A stretch of 64,000 bases of DNA from a virus (IMGVR_UViG_3300024259_000016:1-64000); one strand, 5' to 3'; shown: positions 11,301 through 18,502, numbered from the stretch's first letter. Numbers and translations: made by a program. Notes: generated from the letters alone by a model not told the origin.

Positions 11301-13976
11301 TCAGTCCTCCTCCTTTGTCCCGGCCAGCAGCCTGGCGATCATCTCGGCGACGATCATCTTGCGGGGGATGGCGTACCACTTGGCGCCCTTGAGCAGCTTG
11401 GCCTTGGTGGGGCCCCTGTCGGGCTCAGGCTCCGATTCCCCGGCCAGTGGGCTCTTACCGTCACCAGGCAACAACCAGCTCACGCAGATCTCTCCAGTGG
11501 CCTCCTTGGCGCACAACAGGGGATCATCCTTGGAGCCTCGGCTGACCCGGTCGACCAGGGACTTGAGCAGTCCATCGCAGGCCTTCTTGATCTGCTTGTC
11601 GTCGAGGCCATCAGGGGTATCCCCGAACAGTTGGCCCAACCAATGCTTGTCGGTGTCGTCGACCCAGTCATGTAGCTGGTCGGGCTCAAGCGCCCCAATG
11701 CTCTCAACGCACTCATACTGGTACTTGAAGTACGGAATGATCTGGTCAGCGATACCCGCAGCCCCGCCCTCCTTGACATCCCGAGTGCTGGACAAGCCCT
11801 CGGCAACAGGCTTGGCCGACGGCGCCGAGTACCCGGCGGGGGGCTTTTCGAAGTAGGGCCCTCCACGCTGTAGCACATCGATGACCCGCTCATCGGACTG
11901 CACAAACTTGTGATCCATCCCGGTCAGCCCGCACAAGCCCATCGAGCACATCTCGAAGAAGTCGCAACGCCCCCACCGGCCGACACAGTTGACCGTGCAC
12001 TTGGGGAACCAGTTGTCCACGGTCAAGCCCCTCTTCTTCACCTCCTTTTCCTTGCCCCACAGGACAAGGTGCTGGGCCAGGTCGGTAGCCGCGGGGATCA
12101 TCTCATGTTCCCAACACCGCTCGATGTCCGCAGCCTTGCAGTCAGTAGCCACCCGCACCACATCGTCAGGGGCGATAGCCTGCACACCACCCTCTTCCCG
12201 TGGCTTTACCATGATGGTGACCTGGGTCTGGGCCAGCGGCCCCCACCCATCCGTCTTCTCGTAGTTCCCGTACCGAACCAGGGCGCCGTACCCCGTCAGC
12301 TGGAAGTCCAACCCGAAGGCCTGGTAGAGCTCCAGGGTGAGCATGGAGGCTGTCTTCTCGTCGTGTACCACCACCCCAGCTCGGCCGTCCACGTCCCGAG
12401 CGCCCCGGGACACATCATCCAGGCGCCCCACAAACCGCAACCGCCGACGACCCAGTCCAGTGATCGATACAGGCTCTTCGCACACCGCCTCCAGCCGACA
12501 CTCAACAGCCAGGATGCGACCCCCGTCCTCGACCGACTTGTCCAGGTGCCCGAACTTGGACAACCTCGTCCGCAGGCATGCCCGGGCGATGGCCAGCTCC
12601 TCCCCCAGCACCCCAGCACCAGCCTTGTTCTCGACGAACCGCAGCGGATCCTCCCACCGGTCGAGGCCATAAGACTTGGCGAACTGCAGGCTCGCATGTA
12701 CCAGCGTCCCGATCTGGAACTGTTGCTGCGGCAACCTGTGCTTCAGCCCCAACACATGGGCCAGGAACACCCGCCGCTTGCACTGCTGCCAGTCGATCAG
12801 GATGTGGATGTTGAATCCCCAGTCCAAAGACGACCCACCCGAGTATCCCTTCAGGCCGCCCAACAGCACCCCCACATCAGGCTTACCCAGGGCCAGCCCG
12901 ATCTCCTCCTCCCTCAGGATAGAGTCGATCAGCGAGATAGACTCACCACCACCCTCAGGCAGCTCGGGGAGGGGTGCGGACGACGACCCCTCAGGCACCT
13001 CAACCTCAGCTCCCAGGCCCTCACCCAGGTCCTTGCTCTCCTCTTCAGGAACCTCGACCTTCTTGCTCTCCCAGGCCGGCGCCTCCTCCCCTCGAAGAAC
13101 GAATACATGCTCCAGCTTCACCCAGCCTGGTTCATCTGTGTATGACCCTTCGAGCTTTGCCCGACAGTAGACCTTGTCACCTGACACCTGCTGGAGCAGG
13201 GCGCAATCGAAGGACATGTTGTCAGCGACAGGGCCGAAGCCCGTCTCCACGTCCCCCTGCCTGATAGCAACTGCCCCCTCATACCCCACGGCGTCAACAG
13301 GGAACGGGACCCACTTGTCCTGGAACTCCAGCTCCTTGTGGCCCAGGTCAACGCCACACCCATCACACTGGTCCCTCTCGTGCATCTCGTAGGAGAGGCG
13401 AGCCTGGCACTTGGGGCACTTGCCCCGCGGGTCATCCTTTTCCTTCTCGAGCATCGGGTTGCTCTTGACCTTCTTCTTTCTCTTCGTCACAGGCACCCGG
13501 ATCATCGAGGTAGGCGTCCAGGTCCCGGGGTCATCATCGGTCTTGCATAACAACAGGAACTCCTGGCCGTCCTCTTCCCGACGGTAGTAGTCCCGCAGCT
13601 CCCCCAGCTCAGGGTAGCCGCCCGACACCCGCAGCAGGCCCTGCATCCCGACCTCCCGCTCACTGGCCGGCAGCCACTCGATCTCCTCAGGCCCAGGCCC
13701 CTCGTAAGGCCCCCGCTCTGCCTCATCCTTGGCCAGGTCCAGGCGTGCCTTCGCAGCATCCGACTCAGCTCGAATCTCCTCGACCGCCTTGGGGCAGATG
13801 CGATCCGCCTCGTAGTACTTGTCGCAGTAGGCATGGACATCCGGGGTCCGCATCCCGATCTCCCCACCCCAGCAACCCCGCGGCATGGGCCCCGTCGTTA
13901 CTCCAGCCTCGGCATCGATAGCCACCACCTGCCCACATCGGCACATCACTGCACTGTTACTCTCCGGCTTACCCAT
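11301..13976 (-). CDS. Cas4/AddB-like PD-(D/E)XK exonuclease with long N-terminal extension
   Basis: C-KRRVFL, GTLVH, VECRL, GRLDDV, HDEKT, QLTGY and C-terminal C-x3-C-x6-C-x5-C cluster; CxxC pairs in N-terminal part. Confidence 0.8.
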   Translation of the reverse strand: MGKPESNSAVMCRCGQVVAIDAEAGVTTGPMPRGCWGGEIGMRTPDVHAYCDKYYEADRICPKAVEEIRAESDAAKARLDLAKDEAERGPYEGPGPEEIEWLPASEREVGMQGLLRVSGGYPELGELRDYYRREEDGQEFLLLCKTDDDPGTWTPTSMIRVPVTKRKKKVKSNPMLEKEKDDPRGKCPKCQARLSYEMHERDQCDGCGVDLGHKELEFQDKWVPFPVDAVGYEGAVAIRQGDVETGFGPVADNMSFDCALLQQVSGDKVYCRAKLEGSYTDEPGWVKLEHVFVLRGEEAPAWESKKVEVPEEESKDLGEGLGAEVEVPEGSSSAPLPELPEGGGESISLIDSILREEEIGLALGKPDVGVLLGGLKGYSGGSSLDWGFNIHILIDWQQCKRRVFLAHVLGLKHRLPQQQFQIGTLVHASLQFAKSYGLDRWEDPLRFVENKAGAGVLGEELAIARACLRTRLSKFGHLDKSVEDGGRILAVECRLEAVCEEPVSITGLGRRRLRFVGRLDDVSRGARDVDGRAGVVVHDEKTASMLTLELYQAFGLDFQLTGYGALVRYGNYEKTDGWGPLAQTQVTIMVKPREEGGVQAIAPDDVVRVATDCKAADIERCWEHEMIPAATDLAQHLVLWGKEKEVKKRGLTVDNWFPKCTVNCVGRWGRCDFFEMCSMGLCGLTGMDHKFVQSDERVIDVLQRGGPYFEKPPAGYSAPSAKPVAEGLSSTRDVKEGGAAGIADQIIPYFKYQYECVESIGALEPDQLHDWVDDTDKHWLGQLFGDTPDGLDDKQIKKACDGLLKSLVDRVSRGSKDDPLLCAKEATGEICVSWLLPGDGKSPLAGESEPEPDRGPTKAKLLKGAKWYAIPRKMIVAEMIARLLAGTKEED

Positions 13977-14001
13977 CAGTTTTGTCTCCTTATCGAGTTA
14001 T

Positions 14002-14385
14002 CTATCCGACCCGGTGGAACAACCGGATCTGGTCAGCTTGTTCAGGTGTCAGCAGTAGGACAGTACGGCCCCCTGTCTCCATAGACTTTCCCCGTCCAGG
14101 TTCAGGGAGCACACACTCCCGCTCCATCTCCAGGATCTTCTGGCGGCTCACCCCCAATTCCTCGCCCAGTTGCACCCTGGTAATCCGCTCGCCCTTGGCG
14201 CCCCGCATCCACTTGATCTTCAGGCGGTAGCATTGCTGGTGCAGGGCCTTCTTCGTCACCCCCAACCGACGAGCACCCACCTCCATGGAAACCTTCCCAG
14301 CCAGGTGCAGCAGTCCCTCTCGGCGGGTCATCCTCTCCCCCCCGATCCGAACACCCTCATTCCAGATTCCTCTCTTGCCAGCCAT
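14002..14385 (-). CDS. Small HTH-like DNA-binding protein
   Basis: GARRLGVTKKAL and LGEELGVSRQKI helix-turn-helix-like segments. Confidence 0.55.
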   Translation of the reverse strand: MAGKRGIWNEGVRIGGERMTRREGLLHLAGKVSMEVGARRLGVTKKALHQQCYRLKIKWMRGAKGERITRVQLGEELGVSRQKILEMERECVLPEPGRGKSMETGGRTVLLLTPEQADQIRLFHRVG

Positions 14386-14395
14386 CAGTCTCTCC

Positions 14396-15298
14396 TCACA
14401 ACCAGAGCCACATACCAAGAAGCGTCAGCCCCGCCCCAACGGCAACCCCGAACAATACTCCCCAGACGGGACCAGGCACCCAGCTCTCCTGTATAGGTTC
14501 TCTCGGCGCCACCTTCTCGACGGTATCAGCGAGGCTCAATCCCCCTCCCTGAATTCCCTTATGCAGCTCTCTCTTGAAGTCCTCCACCATGGGGCCAATG
14601 ATCCTTTTCACTTGTTCTCTTTGTTCAGGACTCGGTGGGAGTATCACCAGCTGGGTGTTATCAGGTGGGGGGATAACTCCCTTCCCCCCTTCGTAGCCTG
14701 CAGCAGCCAAAGCATCCAACTGCCTCTGCCTGTGCGGCCCATCCCCCACGAAGATACGGAAGTCAGGCCCTCCACCGATGCGGCTTCCCCTGCCCCCGGC
14801 CTGGATTACAGTATCTGGCGCCCCCACCCCAGGATCCAGGGCCACCCACTGAACGTTCGGGATGTCAATCCCTGTCCCCCACACTCGAGTCGCTACGGCT
14901 ACCCAGGCATCCCCGTCATCCAGACGCTGCCGCATCCCCTCTCGCAGCACCTTGCTCTTGACCCGGGCATCACTCACTTCGATGACCCGGTCCCCCCGGA
15001 ACCCCTCGATCCCGAGCAGCCCCAACCGTATCTTCAGCCACTGGGCTATCAGGTCCCCTGTCGGCAGGTCCCCCACCAACACCAAACCTGGCCAGCTCCC
15101 CTCGCTCAAAGCCACCAGCACATCCTTCAGGATGCCCTCCCAGGCGACATCCAGCCGGCCCTGCTCCCCCCACAGGCTCGACCCACTCGCCCCCTTCTCA
15201 CCACCGGGCTCAATCCCACCGTCGTGCCAGTTAACAACAGCTCCACCACCCGCCAGCTGGATCTCCCTGTCCCGGGGGTTACCTTTGCACGGACCCAT
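14396..15298 (-). CDS. SF2 helicase C-terminal (RecA2) domain as a separate gene
   Basis: Motif V VATRVWGTGIDIP, motif VI VIQAGGRGSR; no Walker A/B; hydrophobic C-terminus. Confidence 0.75.
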   Translation of the reverse strand: MGPCKGNPRDREIQLAGGGAVVNWHDGGIEPGGEKGASGSSLWGEQGRLDVAWEGILKDVLVALSEGSWPGLVLVGDLPTGDLIAQWLKIRLGLLGIEGFRGDRVIEVSDARVKSKVLREGMRQRLDDGDAWVAVATRVWGTGIDIPNVQWVALDPGVGAPDTVIQAGGRGSRIGGGPDFRIFVGDGPHRQRQLDALAAAGYEGGKGVIPPPDNTQLVILPPSPEQREQVKRIIGPMVEDFKRELHKGIQGGGLSLADTVEKVAPREPIQESWVPGPVWGVLFGVAVGAGLTLLGMWLWL

Positions 15299-15418
15299 CA
15301 GATTCCCAGCTTTCCTGTAATGTAACCTTCTCCCAACAATATCGTCACCTTACACGCCATCTTATACTCCCTTGCCCGAAAATCCCCAAATATAACAGCT
15401 ATCCGATATCATTGTGGA

Positions 15419-15453
15419 AAACCTGTGGACAAAGGTTACATTTACAGAAACCC
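15419..15453 (-). repeat. 35-bp inverted repeat copy B, overlapping tandem DnaA-box-like motifs (15413-15421, 15424-15432)
   Basis: TGTGGAAAACCTGTGGACAA reads TTGTCCACA and TTTTCCACA on the minus strand; non-coding region. Confidence 0.88.
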
Positions 15454-15529
15454 ACGTCACACCTTATGCGCATGTGCGCGATCCCCGGGACTACTACCTG
15501 CGGTAGCAGCCCCAGTAGTAGTACCAGTA

Positions 15530-15787
15530 CTACTCATCGGAGGAATCCTCTTTGCGCTCAGCCGGGACCCAGAGGTGGAATGTCATGTAGCTCGGGAGGC
15601 ATCCTCCATTACTGATGGCCCTGGCTGCCTTTTCGATAGGTGTTGTGTCTTTGTCGGACGGGGACTGGCGGAGCAACACAGTGGCTTTTCCTTCCTCGCT
15701 CAGCCCCAGTCGGTCTTCAACAAAGGTCTGCTCAAGCAGGTTCTCGCACTCCAAGCACAGGCCATCTTCATCAAAGGTAACTTTCAT
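15530..15787 (-). CDS. Hypothetical protein between the helicase halves
   Basis: ATGA overlap with the upstream helicase stop; 85 aa. Confidence 0.5.
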   Translation of the reverse strand: MKVTFDEDGLCLECENLLEQTFVEDRLGLSEEGKATVLLRQSPSDKDTTPIEKAARAISNGGCLPSYMTFHLWVPAERKEDSSDE

Positions 15788-17838
15788 GTCCTCACAACCT
15801 CCCCGCGGGCTAGGTACCCACCCCGCTCCAAGTCAGCAATCTCGGCCACCCGTACAATAGGCCCCAGCGCGCACAGCATCAGGCAGTTCCGACCGTCTTG
15901 TCTCCCATCAGGAGTAGCTGTCAGGCCAATACGGCAGCGGGCCCTGAGGCGCCCCAGGACGGGCAAACGTGTATTACTCATGGCTGCATGGCAGTTATGG
16001 ACTACAAATCCGTTAGCGGTGTAGGTGTGCAGCCCCTCAACCTCGAGATTGTAGACAAGACCGTCTGGGCACACCCTCTCGTATTCTTCAAAACTTCCTT
16101 GTTGGAAAACCTGAATACGATCCACCCGAGTCCAGCGAGGAACTTGTCTTTCTTCCGGTCCTGACCTCGCCTCTCTGAACTGTTGTGACTCTGGCCGTCT
16201 ACCTCGATGGCTACCATCAGATCCGGTTGGGCAATGTCGATCTTGTAATGGGTGGGATATCCCCTGGATTTCGGGCCCACCCCTTCTGGAAGGCCTAGTC
16301 TCGTCGGGACAATGTGCTCCATTCCCCAACCGAGTAAACCTGCCAGCATTCGTTGGGGGACTGTAGGTTCTCGTCCGTTGCCCCCCCTCTCGACCCCTTC
16401 CGGCCAGCCCCTCTCCCTCACCTTGGCGGTCACCAGGGCGCGAACCTTGGGATCCTTCATCGGGTTGTTCTTCCGCATTCGCTCGGATGACTTCTTTGAC
16501 CACTCCTCGCGATGCTCCTCCCGGGTTCTGGCCCACACCTTCACTCGGTATTCCTTGACACATTGAACCGAGCAGTAACCCCCCTTTCCTCGGGAAAGTT
16601 GGTAGAGGGCAGACGGGCCCCGACTCCCCTGACAGATAATCCCCTTCCCGCAGTTTATGCAGTTCGTCTTGACTCTCTTCCTTCGTTCTTCCCTCCTCGT
16701 CAATTTGCATGTTTGGCAGAACAGGGATGCTCCGTTGTGATGTCTTTTCTTCCCTGTCTCCTGTCCGCATCTGTCGCAGGTGCCGTCTATCGATCTCTTC
16801 TGATGACCTTTTACTGTTTGATTCTCCATGCTTTCTGTACCCCTCTGGTTTGTGGTAGGGTACAGTGTATAGCACTCTGTCGTTGCGAGCAATCGTCTTG
16901 GCTGGTATCCAGCCTCGTTGGGTGAAAACGGGGTGTTCCTCGGTGCAGATGAATGAACCATCCTGCGTGGTAATCTGGATCAGAGATGATGGGGCTTTTC
17001 TCACGAAAGTTCCTGTGACGGTCCTCCTCTCAAGATTCCCAGATGTCTCATTGTAGGCACTGACTTGGTCCCCGATCTCAATGTCCTCAATGGGCTTTCC
17101 GTCAACCAAGGTCCCTGCTGGGAAGCACTCATCAATCACAACGCCGTCCAGGGCCCCCACAGCCTCCCCAGCAGTCCCTACGGACATGCACTGAGGCACC
17201 CCCTGCCCAACATCCCCACCAACCACATCCCTCATCTCAGGGATCACCCTGTCAAACACCTTCTGGGTCTGCCGAGCCAGCTCCTGGTTCACCACCAGGT
17301 ACCCGACCTTCTCTAGTCCAAGCAGCTCCTGCATGCACATAAGCAGCCCCGCGGCCATCACAGTTTTGCCACTGCCGGTCGCAGCTTGGATCACACACCT
17401 CCCCCACGGTGCACACAACCCCTCCACGATCCCCTCAGCTTGGTAATCACGCAGCGGCATCAGCAGCCCTTCATCCCGCAACGTCAGGACAGCTGACTCA
17501 ATCCGCAGCTGAATCAGCTCGGGCAACCAGGGATTAACAACAGCCCCCCCAACACCCCGGAGCCGGAGCAGCATAGGCTCAGTCTCATGCACTATATGCA
17601 GCCAGCTCATCATGCCCACGGGTACCTGCCCACTCGACAGAGAGCCCGCCCTCAGCACCTCAAGGGCCCCCTGGACTTCCATAACCAATTCTTCAGTACT
17701 GACGCGCCCATCCCGCATCTCCCGGGACCGATACCCCAAGGTCGTTCGCTCGTAGGCCGCCAACATGCTGACGAGGTTTGCCCTCCTACATCCCCCATGC
17801 CCCCAGGTATCCCCCATCCCGTCGACCAGAACGATCAT
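15784..17838 (-). CDS. DEAD/DEAH-type SF2 helicase N-terminal (RecA1) half with intein
   Basis: LRDYQ, ATGSGKT, VIDE/CH after splicing, GLTATPDGRQDG, LGPIV; ends GYLARGEVVRT*. Confidence 0.88.
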   Translation of the reverse strand: MIVLVDGMGDTWGHGGCRRANLVSMLAAYERTTLGYRSREMRDGRVSTEELVMEVQGALEVLRAGSLSSGQVPVGMMSWLHIVHETEPMLLRLRGVGGAVVNPWLPELIQLRIESAVLTLRDEGLLMPLRDYQAEGIVEGLCAPWGRCVIQAATGSGKTVMAAGLLMCMQELLGLEKVGYLVVNQELARQTQKVFDRVIPEMRDVVGGDVGQGVPQCMSVGTAGEAVGALDGVVIDECFPAGTLVDGKPIEDIEIGDQVSAYNETSGNLERRTVTGTFVRKAPSSLIQITTQDGSFICTEEHPVFTQRGWIPAKTIARNDRVLYTVPYHKPEGYRKHGESNSKRSSEEIDRRHLRQMRTGDREEKTSQRSIPVLPNMQIDEEGRTKEESQDELHKLREGDYLSGESGPVCPLPTFPRKGGLLLGSMCQGIPSEGVGQNPGGASRGVVKEVIRANAEEQPDEGSQGSRPGDRQGEGEGLAGRGREGGQRTRTYSPPTNAGRFTRLGNGAHCPDETRPSRRGGPEIQGISHPLQDRHCPTGSDGSHRGRRPESQQFREARSGPEERQVPRWTRVDRIQVFQQGSFEEYERVCPDGLVYNLEVEGLHTYTANGFVVHNCHAAMSNTRLPVLGRLRARCRIGLTATPDGRQDGRNCLMLCALGPIVRVAEIADLERGGYLARGEVVRT
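15994..17127 (-). mobile_element. Intein 3 (378 aa) in helicase motif II; no in-frame endonuclease
   Basis: Starts CFPAGTLV, ICTEEHPVFT block B, ends VYNLEVEGLHTYTANGFVVHN followed by C; middle is low-complexity R/G/E/S-rich. Confidence 0.92.
16002..16829 (-). CDS. Zn-finger + DUF559/Vsr-like putative homing endonuclease nested in the +1 frame of intein 3
   Basis: ATG 16829 with AGAGGGG about 11 nt upstream; four CxxC/CxxxC pairs; SERMRKNNPM; IDIA...AIEVDGQSH...DRKKDKFLAGLGWIVFRFSN. Confidence 0.85.
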   Translation of the reverse strand: MENQTVKGHQKRSIDGTCDRCGQETGKKRHHNGASLFCQTCKLTRREERRKRVKTNCINCGKGIICQGSRGPSALYQLSRGKGGYCSVQCVKEYRVKVWARTREEHREEWSKKSSERMRKNNPMKDPKVRALVTAKVRERGWPEGVERGGNGREPTVPQRMLAGLLGWGMEHIVPTRLGLPEGVGPKSRGYPTHYKIDIAQPDLMVAIEVDGQSHNSSERRGQDRKKDKFLAGLGWIVFRFSNKEVLKNTRGCAQTVLSTISRLRGCTPTPLTDL

Positions 17839-18119
17839 TCTGAGTCCTTAGTGATGGGATCAGGTTCAACGAACAGCATGCATCCGCAGTAACTCTTGCG
17901 AATCTTTTGCGGGTGATACCCCGTCCCTTTGTCCTTCTTAGCGGGTGCAGCACCGGAGATGCACATCCCTTTGGGAAGTGTTGTCCAACCTCGATCACTC
18001 TGCGGCGGCTCGCCCTTGCGAGAAGGCTGGTCCAGGTGGCTATCCCGAGGATGCCCACAGCGAGCACAGATATTTTCGGGAGTTCGGTACTTATCTGACC
18101 AATGCGGCATCACTCCCAC
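17835..18119 (-). CDS. Small Cys/His-containing hypothetical protein
   Basis: CARCGHPRDSH...CGCMLF; overlaps helicase start. Confidence 0.55.
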   Translation of the reverse strand: MGVMPHWSDKYRTPENICARCGHPRDSHLDQPSRKGEPPQSDRGWTTLPKGMCISGAAPAKKDKGTGYHPQKIRKSYCGCMLFVEPDPITKDSE

Positions 18120-18502
18120 CTCCTCTTGGCGTCCCGCTTGTTAAAGCGTTTATCGAACCAGTCTATTTTGCGCCAACTCATGATTGCTCCTTAGCGGTGC
18201 CTTTTGCTTTATCCATCTCTTGCCGCGCCCACCTGGCCCCGTCGAATTGGCCGTTGAATTTCCCAATGCAGTATCCGGCCCAGTAGCCCAGTCCGCCCAC
18301 CGCAAAAAGGCTGATCAAAATAATCTCGCCCATGGCTACTCCTCCTGCTCCTTTGGGGTGGTTACCATTCCGAGGATCACCCTCAGAGCCTTCAGTCGGG
18401 CCTGTGGCCCACCGCGCTTCATGTGGCTATTCCAAGGTGACCGGAGGAACTTTTCGGTATCCTCGATCTCCTCGAGCAACCATTCGATGGCCTCGGGTTC
18501 CG

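Follow-up and report, generated by a model that had tools for sequence, protein, structure and literature searches.

A putative homing-endonuclease gene nested out of frame within a helicase intein of a marine phage

We analyzed a stretch of 64,000 nt (IMGVR_UViG_3300024259_000016:1-64000), hereafter the window, in whose coordinates all positions are given. It belongs to a 114-kb IMG/VR virus record with terminal repeats, and the source of the record is a marine phage. A helicase gene on the minus strand of the window is interrupted by an intein, and the DNA of this intein contains, in its +1 frame, a second complete gene coding for a Vsr-like nuclease. Very probably, the element is a mobile intein into which a homing-endonuclease gene (HEG) is nested, where the host protein would be spliced in cis and the nuclease would be made from a translation start of its own. 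Both frames are open, both are predicted to yield folded protein, and the same arrangement recurs in a large family of related loci with substitution patterns that differ along the element.

Results

A class-1 intein in motif II of the helicase

The host open reading frame (ORF) matched Pfam ResIII (2.3e-9) and PHROG 16, DNA helicase (3e-15), and was alignable with the complete 938-aa helicase of a related locus, L004. Three helicase motifs were found in it: motif I (GSGKT), motif II (DE/CH, interrupted by the intein) and motif III (TATP). The host gene and the parts of its intein are as follows:

17838-15784, minus strand: host gene ORF, 684 aa, N-terminal half of a superfamily 2 (SF2; ResIII/DEAD-type) helicase, with its stop at 15786-15784
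17127-15994, minus strand: class-1 intein, 378 codons, 0 stops, between DE and CH of helicase motif II
16843-17127, minus strand: predicted HINT N-lobe, containing blocks A and B and spanning intein residues 1 to ~95, with T62xxH65 at 16944-16933 (AlphaFold2 and Foldseek)
16141-16842, minus strand: intein-frame linker, intein residues ~96-329, an off-frame reading of the nuclease gene
15994-16140, minus strand: predicted HINT C-lobe, containing blocks F and G and spanning intein residues 330-378, ending ...DGLVYNLEVEGLHTYTANGFVVHN (AlphaFold2 and conservation)
DE/CH codons, minus strand: junction DNA of the intein-less helicase, ...GTGATTGATGAG/TGCCATGCA...

The intein begins with CFPAGT and ends with VVHN, after which comes the +1 Cys of the extein. 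It carries the nucleophile and the TxxH of a class-1 intein (C1 and, in block B, T62xxH65) and the terminal H377-N378, and it shares one frame with both exteins at a conserved site. Comparison with 52 related inteins showed that C1, T62, H65 and N378 were invariant and H377 near-invariant, and blocks F and G were kept in all related loci. In the Pfam search, Intein_splicing was matched with 38.8 bits (cut-off of 35.8) and PT-HINT with 40.7 bits over intein residues 11-86. The former match aligned residues 12-378 with profile positions 11-155 only, which indicates a large internal insert.

A complete nuclease gene in the +1 frame

The insert is occupied by a gene in the +1 frame relative to the intein. 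Its features are:

16829-16002, minus strand: HEG, 275 aa plus stop, ATG at 16829, stop at 16004-16002, +1 frame relative to the intein
16846-16840, minus strand: Shine-Dalgarno (SD)-like AGAGGGG, 10 nt upstream of the nuclease ATG, read directly
16707-16778, minus strand: zinc-ribbon-like module 1, C18xxC21...C38xxC41
16560-16661, minus strand: zinc-ribbon-like module 2, C57xxC60...C86xxxC90
16032-16370, minus strand: Vsr-like/DUF559 (EDxHD-type) nuclease core, residues 154-266, from structure and profile matches
16205-16203, 16199-16197, 16187-16185, 16160-16158 and 16151-16149, minus strand: core residues E209, D211, H215, D224 and K227, respectively
16038-16139, minus strand: doubly structured overlap, nuclease residues 231-264 over intein residues 330-364

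The initial annotation, made from the sequence alone, had described an intein frame open for 378 codons with intact splicing blocks and, within it, a 275-aa ORF with its own ATG, the SD-like AGAGGGG, four Cys pairs and a stop 8 nt ahead of the intein end. All of these were read again directly from the DNA. The DUF559/Vsr-like core it had proposed was borne out by the structure matches given below and by Pfam, where the nuclease matched DUF559 with 42.5 bits (cut-off of 20.6) and MTES_1575 with 39.3 bits (cut-off of 38.2). Its NUMOD3-like label for a basic segment gained no support from Pfam: neither NUMOD3 nor any other NUMOD family was listed for the nuclease in Pfam at E ≤ 1, and where NUMOD repeats would be, there stand a conserved S-x-R-M-K-x-x-N-P-M motif and the two zinc ribbons. 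The ribbon region as a whole (16560-16778) gave weak profile matches to zf-FCS and L33-like families and was modeled as short strand pairs with a predicted local distance difference test score (pLDDT) of 76-88. Within the nuclease family C86 was invariant, with C57, C60 and C90 nearly so, and these modules are presumed to be the DNA-binding part of the enzyme.

In the core, E209, H215, D224 and K227 were invariant and D211 nearly so among 27 family members. The signature residues aligned with the AIEV.G...D segment of 3R3P, the catalytic domain of the homing endonuclease I-Bth0305I, and with 3HRL, a DUF559 protein. The conserved E/D/H/D fits the composite EDxHD signature of the I-Bth0305I lineage (PMC3239194), the residues being mapped to those of that paper by alignment and not by a superposed active site.

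The position of the start codon bears on how the nuclease would be translated. Its N-terminus is aligned with the starts of the homologues; an earlier ATG at 16961, which would give a 319-aa form, was rejected, as the extension has no counterpart in them. The nuclease ORFs of the relatives begin at intein residue ~80-100, and many of these loci have the nuclease frame closed by a stop 0-3 codons ahead of the ATG (L002, L011, L052, L054, L062, L070). Independent initiation is favored by these sequence comparisons because of such stops and because homologues start at the aligned Met. The alternative would be programmed +1 frameshifting from the intein frame, producing a fusion of the helicase N-extein, the HINT N-lobe and the nuclease. 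The SD spacing is not ideal, and the +1 frame is open over 325 codons, from intein codon 49, i.e., upstream of the ATG, both of which speak for such a shift. Nevertheless, the stops just before the ATG in so many relatives leave no room for a conserved shift site, the called homologues and a free-standing relative begin at the aligned Met, and the fusion would end ahead of block G, so it could not splice. We therefore consider frameshifting very unlikely.

Predicted structures of the two frames

The AlphaFold model of the nuclease had a mean pLDDT of 82.7, with the core above 90, and showed two zinc ribbons, a helical linker and a Vsr-like core. Superposition of model residues 148-266 with VIA-align gave these matches:

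3HRL, DUF559 protein: Z 12.1, root-mean-square deviation (rmsd) 1.3, 86 aligned
3R3P, catalytic domain of homing endonuclease I-Bth0305I: Z 10.3, rmsd 2.6, 90 aligned
1CW0, E. coli Vsr: Z 9.5, rmsd 2.1, 96 aligned

When the whole nuclease model was used in Foldseek, the E-values for 3R3P, 3HRL and 1CW0 were weak (0.04-0.6), and the family profile searched against the PDB found 3HRL at 6.7e-10 and 3R3P at 0.011.

The AlphaFold2 model of the intein frame was confident at its two ends only, with pLDDT of 94-98 for residues 1-90 and of 89-98 for residues 330-378. Foldseek matched these HINT lobes, with a probability of 1.00, to the mini-inteins Mtu RecA, Ssp DnaB and gp41-1 (e.g., 2IMZ, 6FRG, 6QAZ), and Pfam, AlphaFold2 and Foldseek agree on a HINT fold for the predicted structure. 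Residues 95-325 had pLDDT of 44-57 and were modeled without secondary structure except for one weak helix, in line with the initial description of the middle of the intein as typical of off-frame translation. On these models, the intein product would thus be a mini-intein with a disordered loop of ~235 residues, which is the off-frame reading of the nuclease gene.

The double open frame is neither chance nor an assembly error

Within the intein, frame 0 had no stop, the third sense frame had 21 and the antisense frames had 9-14, and the off-frame stop density in other long ORFs of the phage was 3-4%. With the nuclease protein held fixed, its codons were resampled synonymously, from either genome-wide usage or the codons of the gene itself. 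On average, the intein frame of the resampled sequences contained 10-12 stops, and not one of 20,000 draws reached the zero that was observed, in agreement with the earlier proposal that both frames are held stop-free. The double open frame is non-random.

An artefact could imitate this arrangement, if two compensating indels had pushed an ordinary in-frame endonuclease out of the intein frame. Elsewhere such an in-frame form is present: the protein P0048, a UvrD-type helicase, has a DUF559 core within its intein. The indel check called for by the initial annotation gave a clear answer: Logan contigs from four other seawater metagenome runs showed 0 differences and 0 gaps over 15700-17900, with a cover that comes in pieces, none of them spanning the whole stretch, and with X8 lacking cover over ~16440-16587. 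In addition, the nuclease stop lies inside the coding sequence of block G, and no pair of indels could bring everything into one frame and still keep blocks F and G. The ATG of the nuclease is its own and is aligned with the homologue N-termini, and the two genes stand in the same frame relation in 82 of 83 viral loci and 49 of 54 genomic ones, all from unrelated samples. This explanation is close to refuted, and we give it practically no weight.

The same layout in a large family of loci

The protein collection contained 44 called nuclease homologues with 36-55% identity, nearly all of them with both DUF559 and MTES_1575 and 2 with DUF559 only. At least 383 related loci were present in IMG/VR, and 83 of them were examined, i.e., the best 80 and three found earlier. 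Of these 83, 82 were stop-free across the nuclease in the frame +2 to it, which is the same phase as in the window, and this frame belonged to an ORF of ~500-2500 aa; the remaining frame had 3-31 stops. The layout held across GC contents of 0.30-0.67. The ends of the intein could be set in 79 loci, and all of these ran from CF/CL/CM... to ...HN, apart from 3 that end with ...SN. The insertion was at DE/CH of helicase motif II in most loci and at DE/CK, DE/CQ or after DExH in a minority.

The avoidance of stops was visible at the level of single codons. Among the 66 unique loci, 3,812 nuclease codons stand before a codon starting with AA, AG or GA, and T was found at their third position in 0% of cases, compared with 24.6% elsewhere. 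With no T at this position, no stop arises in the intein frame, and the total over the 66 loci was indeed 0, against a median of 8.9 expected per locus. This observation also bears on the possibility of a split, trans-splicing intein of the 'fractured gene' type, where N and C parts would be made separately and the open middle would be irrelevant. The closest published arrangement with a Vsr-like HEG is in fact a fractured gene (Dassa 2009), in which the 3' end of the HEG also overlaps C-intein coding. In the window, however, the N-lobe is not followed by a stop, a start for a C-intein gene is not evident, and a frame kept stop-free against ~9-12 expected stops, both here and in 66 unique relatives, is sensible only if read-through is required. 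A split intein is hardly credible on these grounds.

Outside the viral set, 49 of 54 long matches in a bacterial and archaeal genome collection, mostly contigs of metagenome-assembled genomes (MAGs), had the same open frame, at least 40 of them with a recognizable block G; as a control, ordinary short DUF559 matches mostly had stops in the corresponding frame. The nested layout is thus standard for a large phage intein family and not a one-off or singular oddity.

Some loci depart from this layout. Five MAG contigs (L101, L117, L118, L136, L143) had long nuclease matches for which each of the other two frames contained stops, and these may represent free-standing forms or fractured genes. In three loci (L011:656-1882, L028:3068-4285, L075:3248-4114) the unit of intein and +1 nuclease was found one turn later in motif II (DEGH/C, DEAH/C), in host proteins that are much larger, from ~810 to 2520 aa. 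These later-site units suggest moves between related target sites.

Two further relatives have the nuclease in another setting. In L059:1531-3373, a free-standing relative of 206 aa, lacking the STIS imprint described below, shares 17 nt with the start of a helicase gene (412 aa) that has no intein, a layout similar to that of the free-standing HEGs presumed to have given rise to the nested form. The other is P0048, an 818-aa UvrD/RecD-type helicase from an ENA metagenome contig of 4484 bp, whose intein (VVVDE/CLPYW...LVHN/CQ) has the DUF559 core in frame. This core was 50% identical to that of the window nuclease over 116 residues and came without zinc ribbons. Read from its protein sequence, P0048 may have arisen from the +1 arrangement as an in-frame derivative, or it may reflect a frameshift error.

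It seems to us somewhat more probable than otherwise that the same-strand +1 Vsr-like HEG is the ancestral or default state of a very large family of helicase DE/CH inteins. The family would then be a contiguous 'missing link' between fractured genes with split inteins and canonical inteins with in-frame endonucleases, with ~100 nt doubly folded and with P0048 perhaps as an in-frame derivative. Held with the same leaning, and as part of that reading, is a spread over hundreds of loci, with GC contents of 0.30-0.67, in prophages or MAG contigs of many bacterial phyla.

Selection acts on different frames along the element

Six clusters of related loci with 70-99% nucleotide identity were used, and their substitutions were sorted by codon position. 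The third position of the intein codons took 54-58% of the substitutions in the exteins and 51% in the N-lobe of the intein. In the core of the nuclease, 57% fell on the first position of the intein codons, equivalent to nuclease position 3, and over the final 75 nt of the nuclease ORF 48% fell on the third position of the intein codons.

At the amino-acid level, the nuclease is therefore under selection in the middle part, the intein is under selection towards either end, and both are under selection in the last ~45 codons; the intein-frame linker is constrained only to stay stop-free. A comparison per frame among homologues had been proposed at the outset, and its result, with the nuclease frame selected in the core and the intein frame in the splicing blocks, agrees with what was expected. 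The reading of the intein as a 'safe harbour', a mini-intein frame kept open with a separate +1 nuclease gene, also gains support from this family-level selection and from the models.

The window copy itself could be a decaying relic, with a nuclease no longer expressed or active, a reading frame open through the intein frame and recent descent, and hence a de facto mini-intein with filler. The best relatives found for this copy had 50% aa identity in IMG/VR and 37% in a metagenome scan with a single protein. Its intactness is supported by the full length of the ORF, by the presence of all 20 invariant columns of the family, including E209, G212, H215, D224 and K227, and by the confident nuclease model. 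Furthermore, given the off-frame stop density noted above, a 325-codon open frame in 57% GC DNA would be short-lived without selection. A relic is accordingly improbable, less so than the frameshift or the split intein.

A segment where both frames are structured

The nuclease ORF overlaps the coding sequence of the C-lobe (16140-15994) by ~140 nt. On the nuclease side, the doubly structured part of this overlap corresponds to the last strand and the C-terminal helices, LGWxVxRFxN...TVLSTIS, with an invariant GW.V.RF.N motif, and the alignment with 3HRL extends through the C-terminal helix. On the intein side, the same DNA is read as the HINT strands RVDxV...DGLVYNLEVE. The conserved C-terminal tail of the nuclease homologues, CVQTVLSTISRL...T.T, is an imprint that intein block F (DGLVYNLEVE) leaves in the +1 frame. 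Among the relatives, substitution density was 0.18 per site over the final 75 nt of the nuclease ORF, as compared with 0.42 in the core. According to the models and the conservation, both frames are predicted to encode conserved, confidently folded protein over the last ~45 nuclease codons. The earlier view of the spliced-out product as a junk peptide thus stands for the linker and fails for these codons.

Proposed mechanism

Ribosomes would read from the N-half of the helicase straight through the 378-codon intein. The first ~95 and last ~49 intein residues would fold as a mini-intein HINT domain around a loop of ~235 residues, disordered because it is an off-frame reading of the nuclease gene. 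Class-1 splicing, with C1, T62xxH65, H377-N378 and the +1 Cys, would remove the insert, rejoin VIDE-CH and restore motif II. Separate initiation at the +1-frame ATG (16829), probably from the same mRNA, would give the 275-aa nuclease, which presumably cuts intein-less helicase alleles near the DE/CH codons in co-infecting phages. Recombinational repair would then copy the intein and the HEG together, i.e., homing. We infer splicing, independent initiation, target cleavage and homing from what is known of class-1 inteins and EDxHD enzymes (PMC3239194, PMC2677866). It is plausible that the element arose when a free-standing HEG invaded a mini-intein, since relatives that stand alone, such as L059, exist.

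Several observations weigh against this mechanism. The 10-nt spacer after the SD-like AGAGGGG is rather long, and the promoter scan found no sigma-70-like promoter inside the intein upstream of the nuclease start; the number of sites in that scan was no higher than in shuffled sequence. Among the sequencing runs listed for this sequence, none was of RNA. A disordered loop of 235 residues might slow or impair splicing. With no close relative at hand, purifying selection is a statement about the family and not about the window copy. Lastly, downstream of the intein the host helicase is split between two genes, where relatives have one continuous gene.

The divided helicase downstream of the intein

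Two ORFs follow the helicase N-half:

15787-15530, minus strand: 85-aa ORF, no family match, overlapping the stop of the helicase N-half in ATGA
15298-14396, minus strand: 300-aa ORF with Helicase_C (27.6 bits), in another frame, after a 230-nt spacer

A search of 13500-18500 gave no Rfam match at E ≤ 1, and hence no group I or II intron within the helicase or next to it. Between the two helicase halves, the spacer contains, at 15380-15460 on the minus strand, the DnaA-box-like motifs TTTGTCCACA / TTTTCCACA, as well as a promoter-like site at 15418-15389 on the same strand (9/12, with TG).

Discussion

Gene callers report only the long host ORF in such loci, so that the nuclease goes unannotated and the intein looks decaying or mini. 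The family supports the view of intein evolution in which the splicing domain comes first and the endonuclease invades later, and it links the free-standing HEG, the fractured gene with a split intein and the in-frame homing endonuclease (HEN) domain. It is also a large natural data set on how two frames are kept open, with the simple rule of no T before AA, AG or GA, and its overlap shows two folded segments sharing ~100 nt. From a practical point of view, a HINT domain predicted to tolerate a disordered insert of ~235 residues is of interest for intein engineering, and the zinc-ribbon EDxHD nucleases are candidate site-specific enzymes against a very conserved helicase motif.

Comparison with known systems

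The prototype of EDxHD homing endonucleases is I-Bth0305I (Taylor et al. 2011, PMC3239194; 3R3P). It shares with the window nuclease a C-terminal Vsr-like catalytic domain, a separate N-terminal DNA-binding part and residence in a self-splicing element of a phage DNA-metabolism gene. That element is a group I intron of recA and the enzyme has NUMOD repeats, whereas the window nuclease lies inside an intein and has two zinc ribbons; by sequence, the latter is closer to DUF559 (3HRL, 6.7e-10) than to I-Bth0305I (3R3P, 0.011). A second system, the ShiLan-type insertion (PMC11855218), is a hidden out-of-frame HNH endonuclease in phage methylases. Here the host frame is likewise stop-free across the insertion and a zinc-finger HEG lies in another frame of the same strand, but the nuclease is of the HNH type and the insertion has no splicing domains and stays as a loop of the host protein, whereas the window insert has a complete HINT domain.

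In the fractured genes described by Dassa et al. 2009 (PMC2677866), the two parts of a split intein are separated by a free-standing HEG of the Vsr-like or GIY-YIG type. Fractured genes resemble the window element in the Vsr-like lineage, the same strand, the phage context, the HEG between N and C parts and the 3' overlap, which is 6-69 bp there. Their intein frame is broken by a stop, a spacer of 27-51 nt precedes the HEG and splicing is in trans. The window intein, in contrast, is contiguous: its frame reads through the whole HEG, and the overlap with the C-lobe is ~140 nt. Of the two hallmarks, a broken intein frame is thus absent and a same-strand Vsr-like HEG overlapping the C-intein is present.

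Inteins with a HEN in a separate overlapping frame have been reported from actinobacteriophages by Gosselin, Arsenault and Gogarten (bioRxiv 10.1101/2025.01.02.630785). The cases presented in the main account of that preprint are an antisense LAGLIDADG, an antisense VSR-like and a same-strand frame-3 endonuclease VII-like enzyme, and the hosts named there are DNA polymerase, minor capsid, terminase and thymidylate synthase. As described there, these inteins have, like that of the window, an open but structureless intein frame and a HEN between the splicing blocks, the VSR-like/EDxHD type is included and invasion by a free-standing HEG is proposed. Among the cases presented, the VSR-like HENs are antisense and the only same-strand out-of-frame case is endonuclease VII-like, whereas the window element has a Vsr-like HEG on the same strand, in the +1 frame, in an SF2 helicase at DE/CH and with its 3' end over blocks F/G. 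Phillips et al. (bioRxiv 10.64898/2026.09.14.751524) described a cyanobacterial dnaX intein with an out-of-frame HEN under purifying selection and called such cases a rarity. That intein is also broadly distributed, has splicing and HEN functions in overlapping frames, was studied by substitution analysis and is proposed to come from secondary invasion of a mini-intein. It differs in residing in cyanobacterial chromosomes and in having the HEN in a '+2 ORF', and 'Vsr' is absent from the text, while the window family has hundreds of loci. As in these overlapping-frame inteins, a complete HEN ORF stands here in another frame, with the intein frame open and structureless over it, and purifying selection on the HEN frame was found for the family (57% of the core substitutions at nuclease position 3).

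The initial annotation had referred to alternate-frame endonucleases in some phage inteins and left novelty to a literature check. Out-of-frame intein HENs are indeed published, the general idea is already in these 2025-2026 preprints, and the phenomenon is not unreported. A full-text literature search joining intein with DUF559 returned nothing relevant. Allowing for a possible overlap with the supplementary data of Gosselin et al., the combination of a same-strand +1 Vsr-like HEG, a contiguous intein frame and the helicase DE/CH site differs from the arrangements that Gosselin et al. present in their main account and from those of Phillips et al. and Dassa et al.

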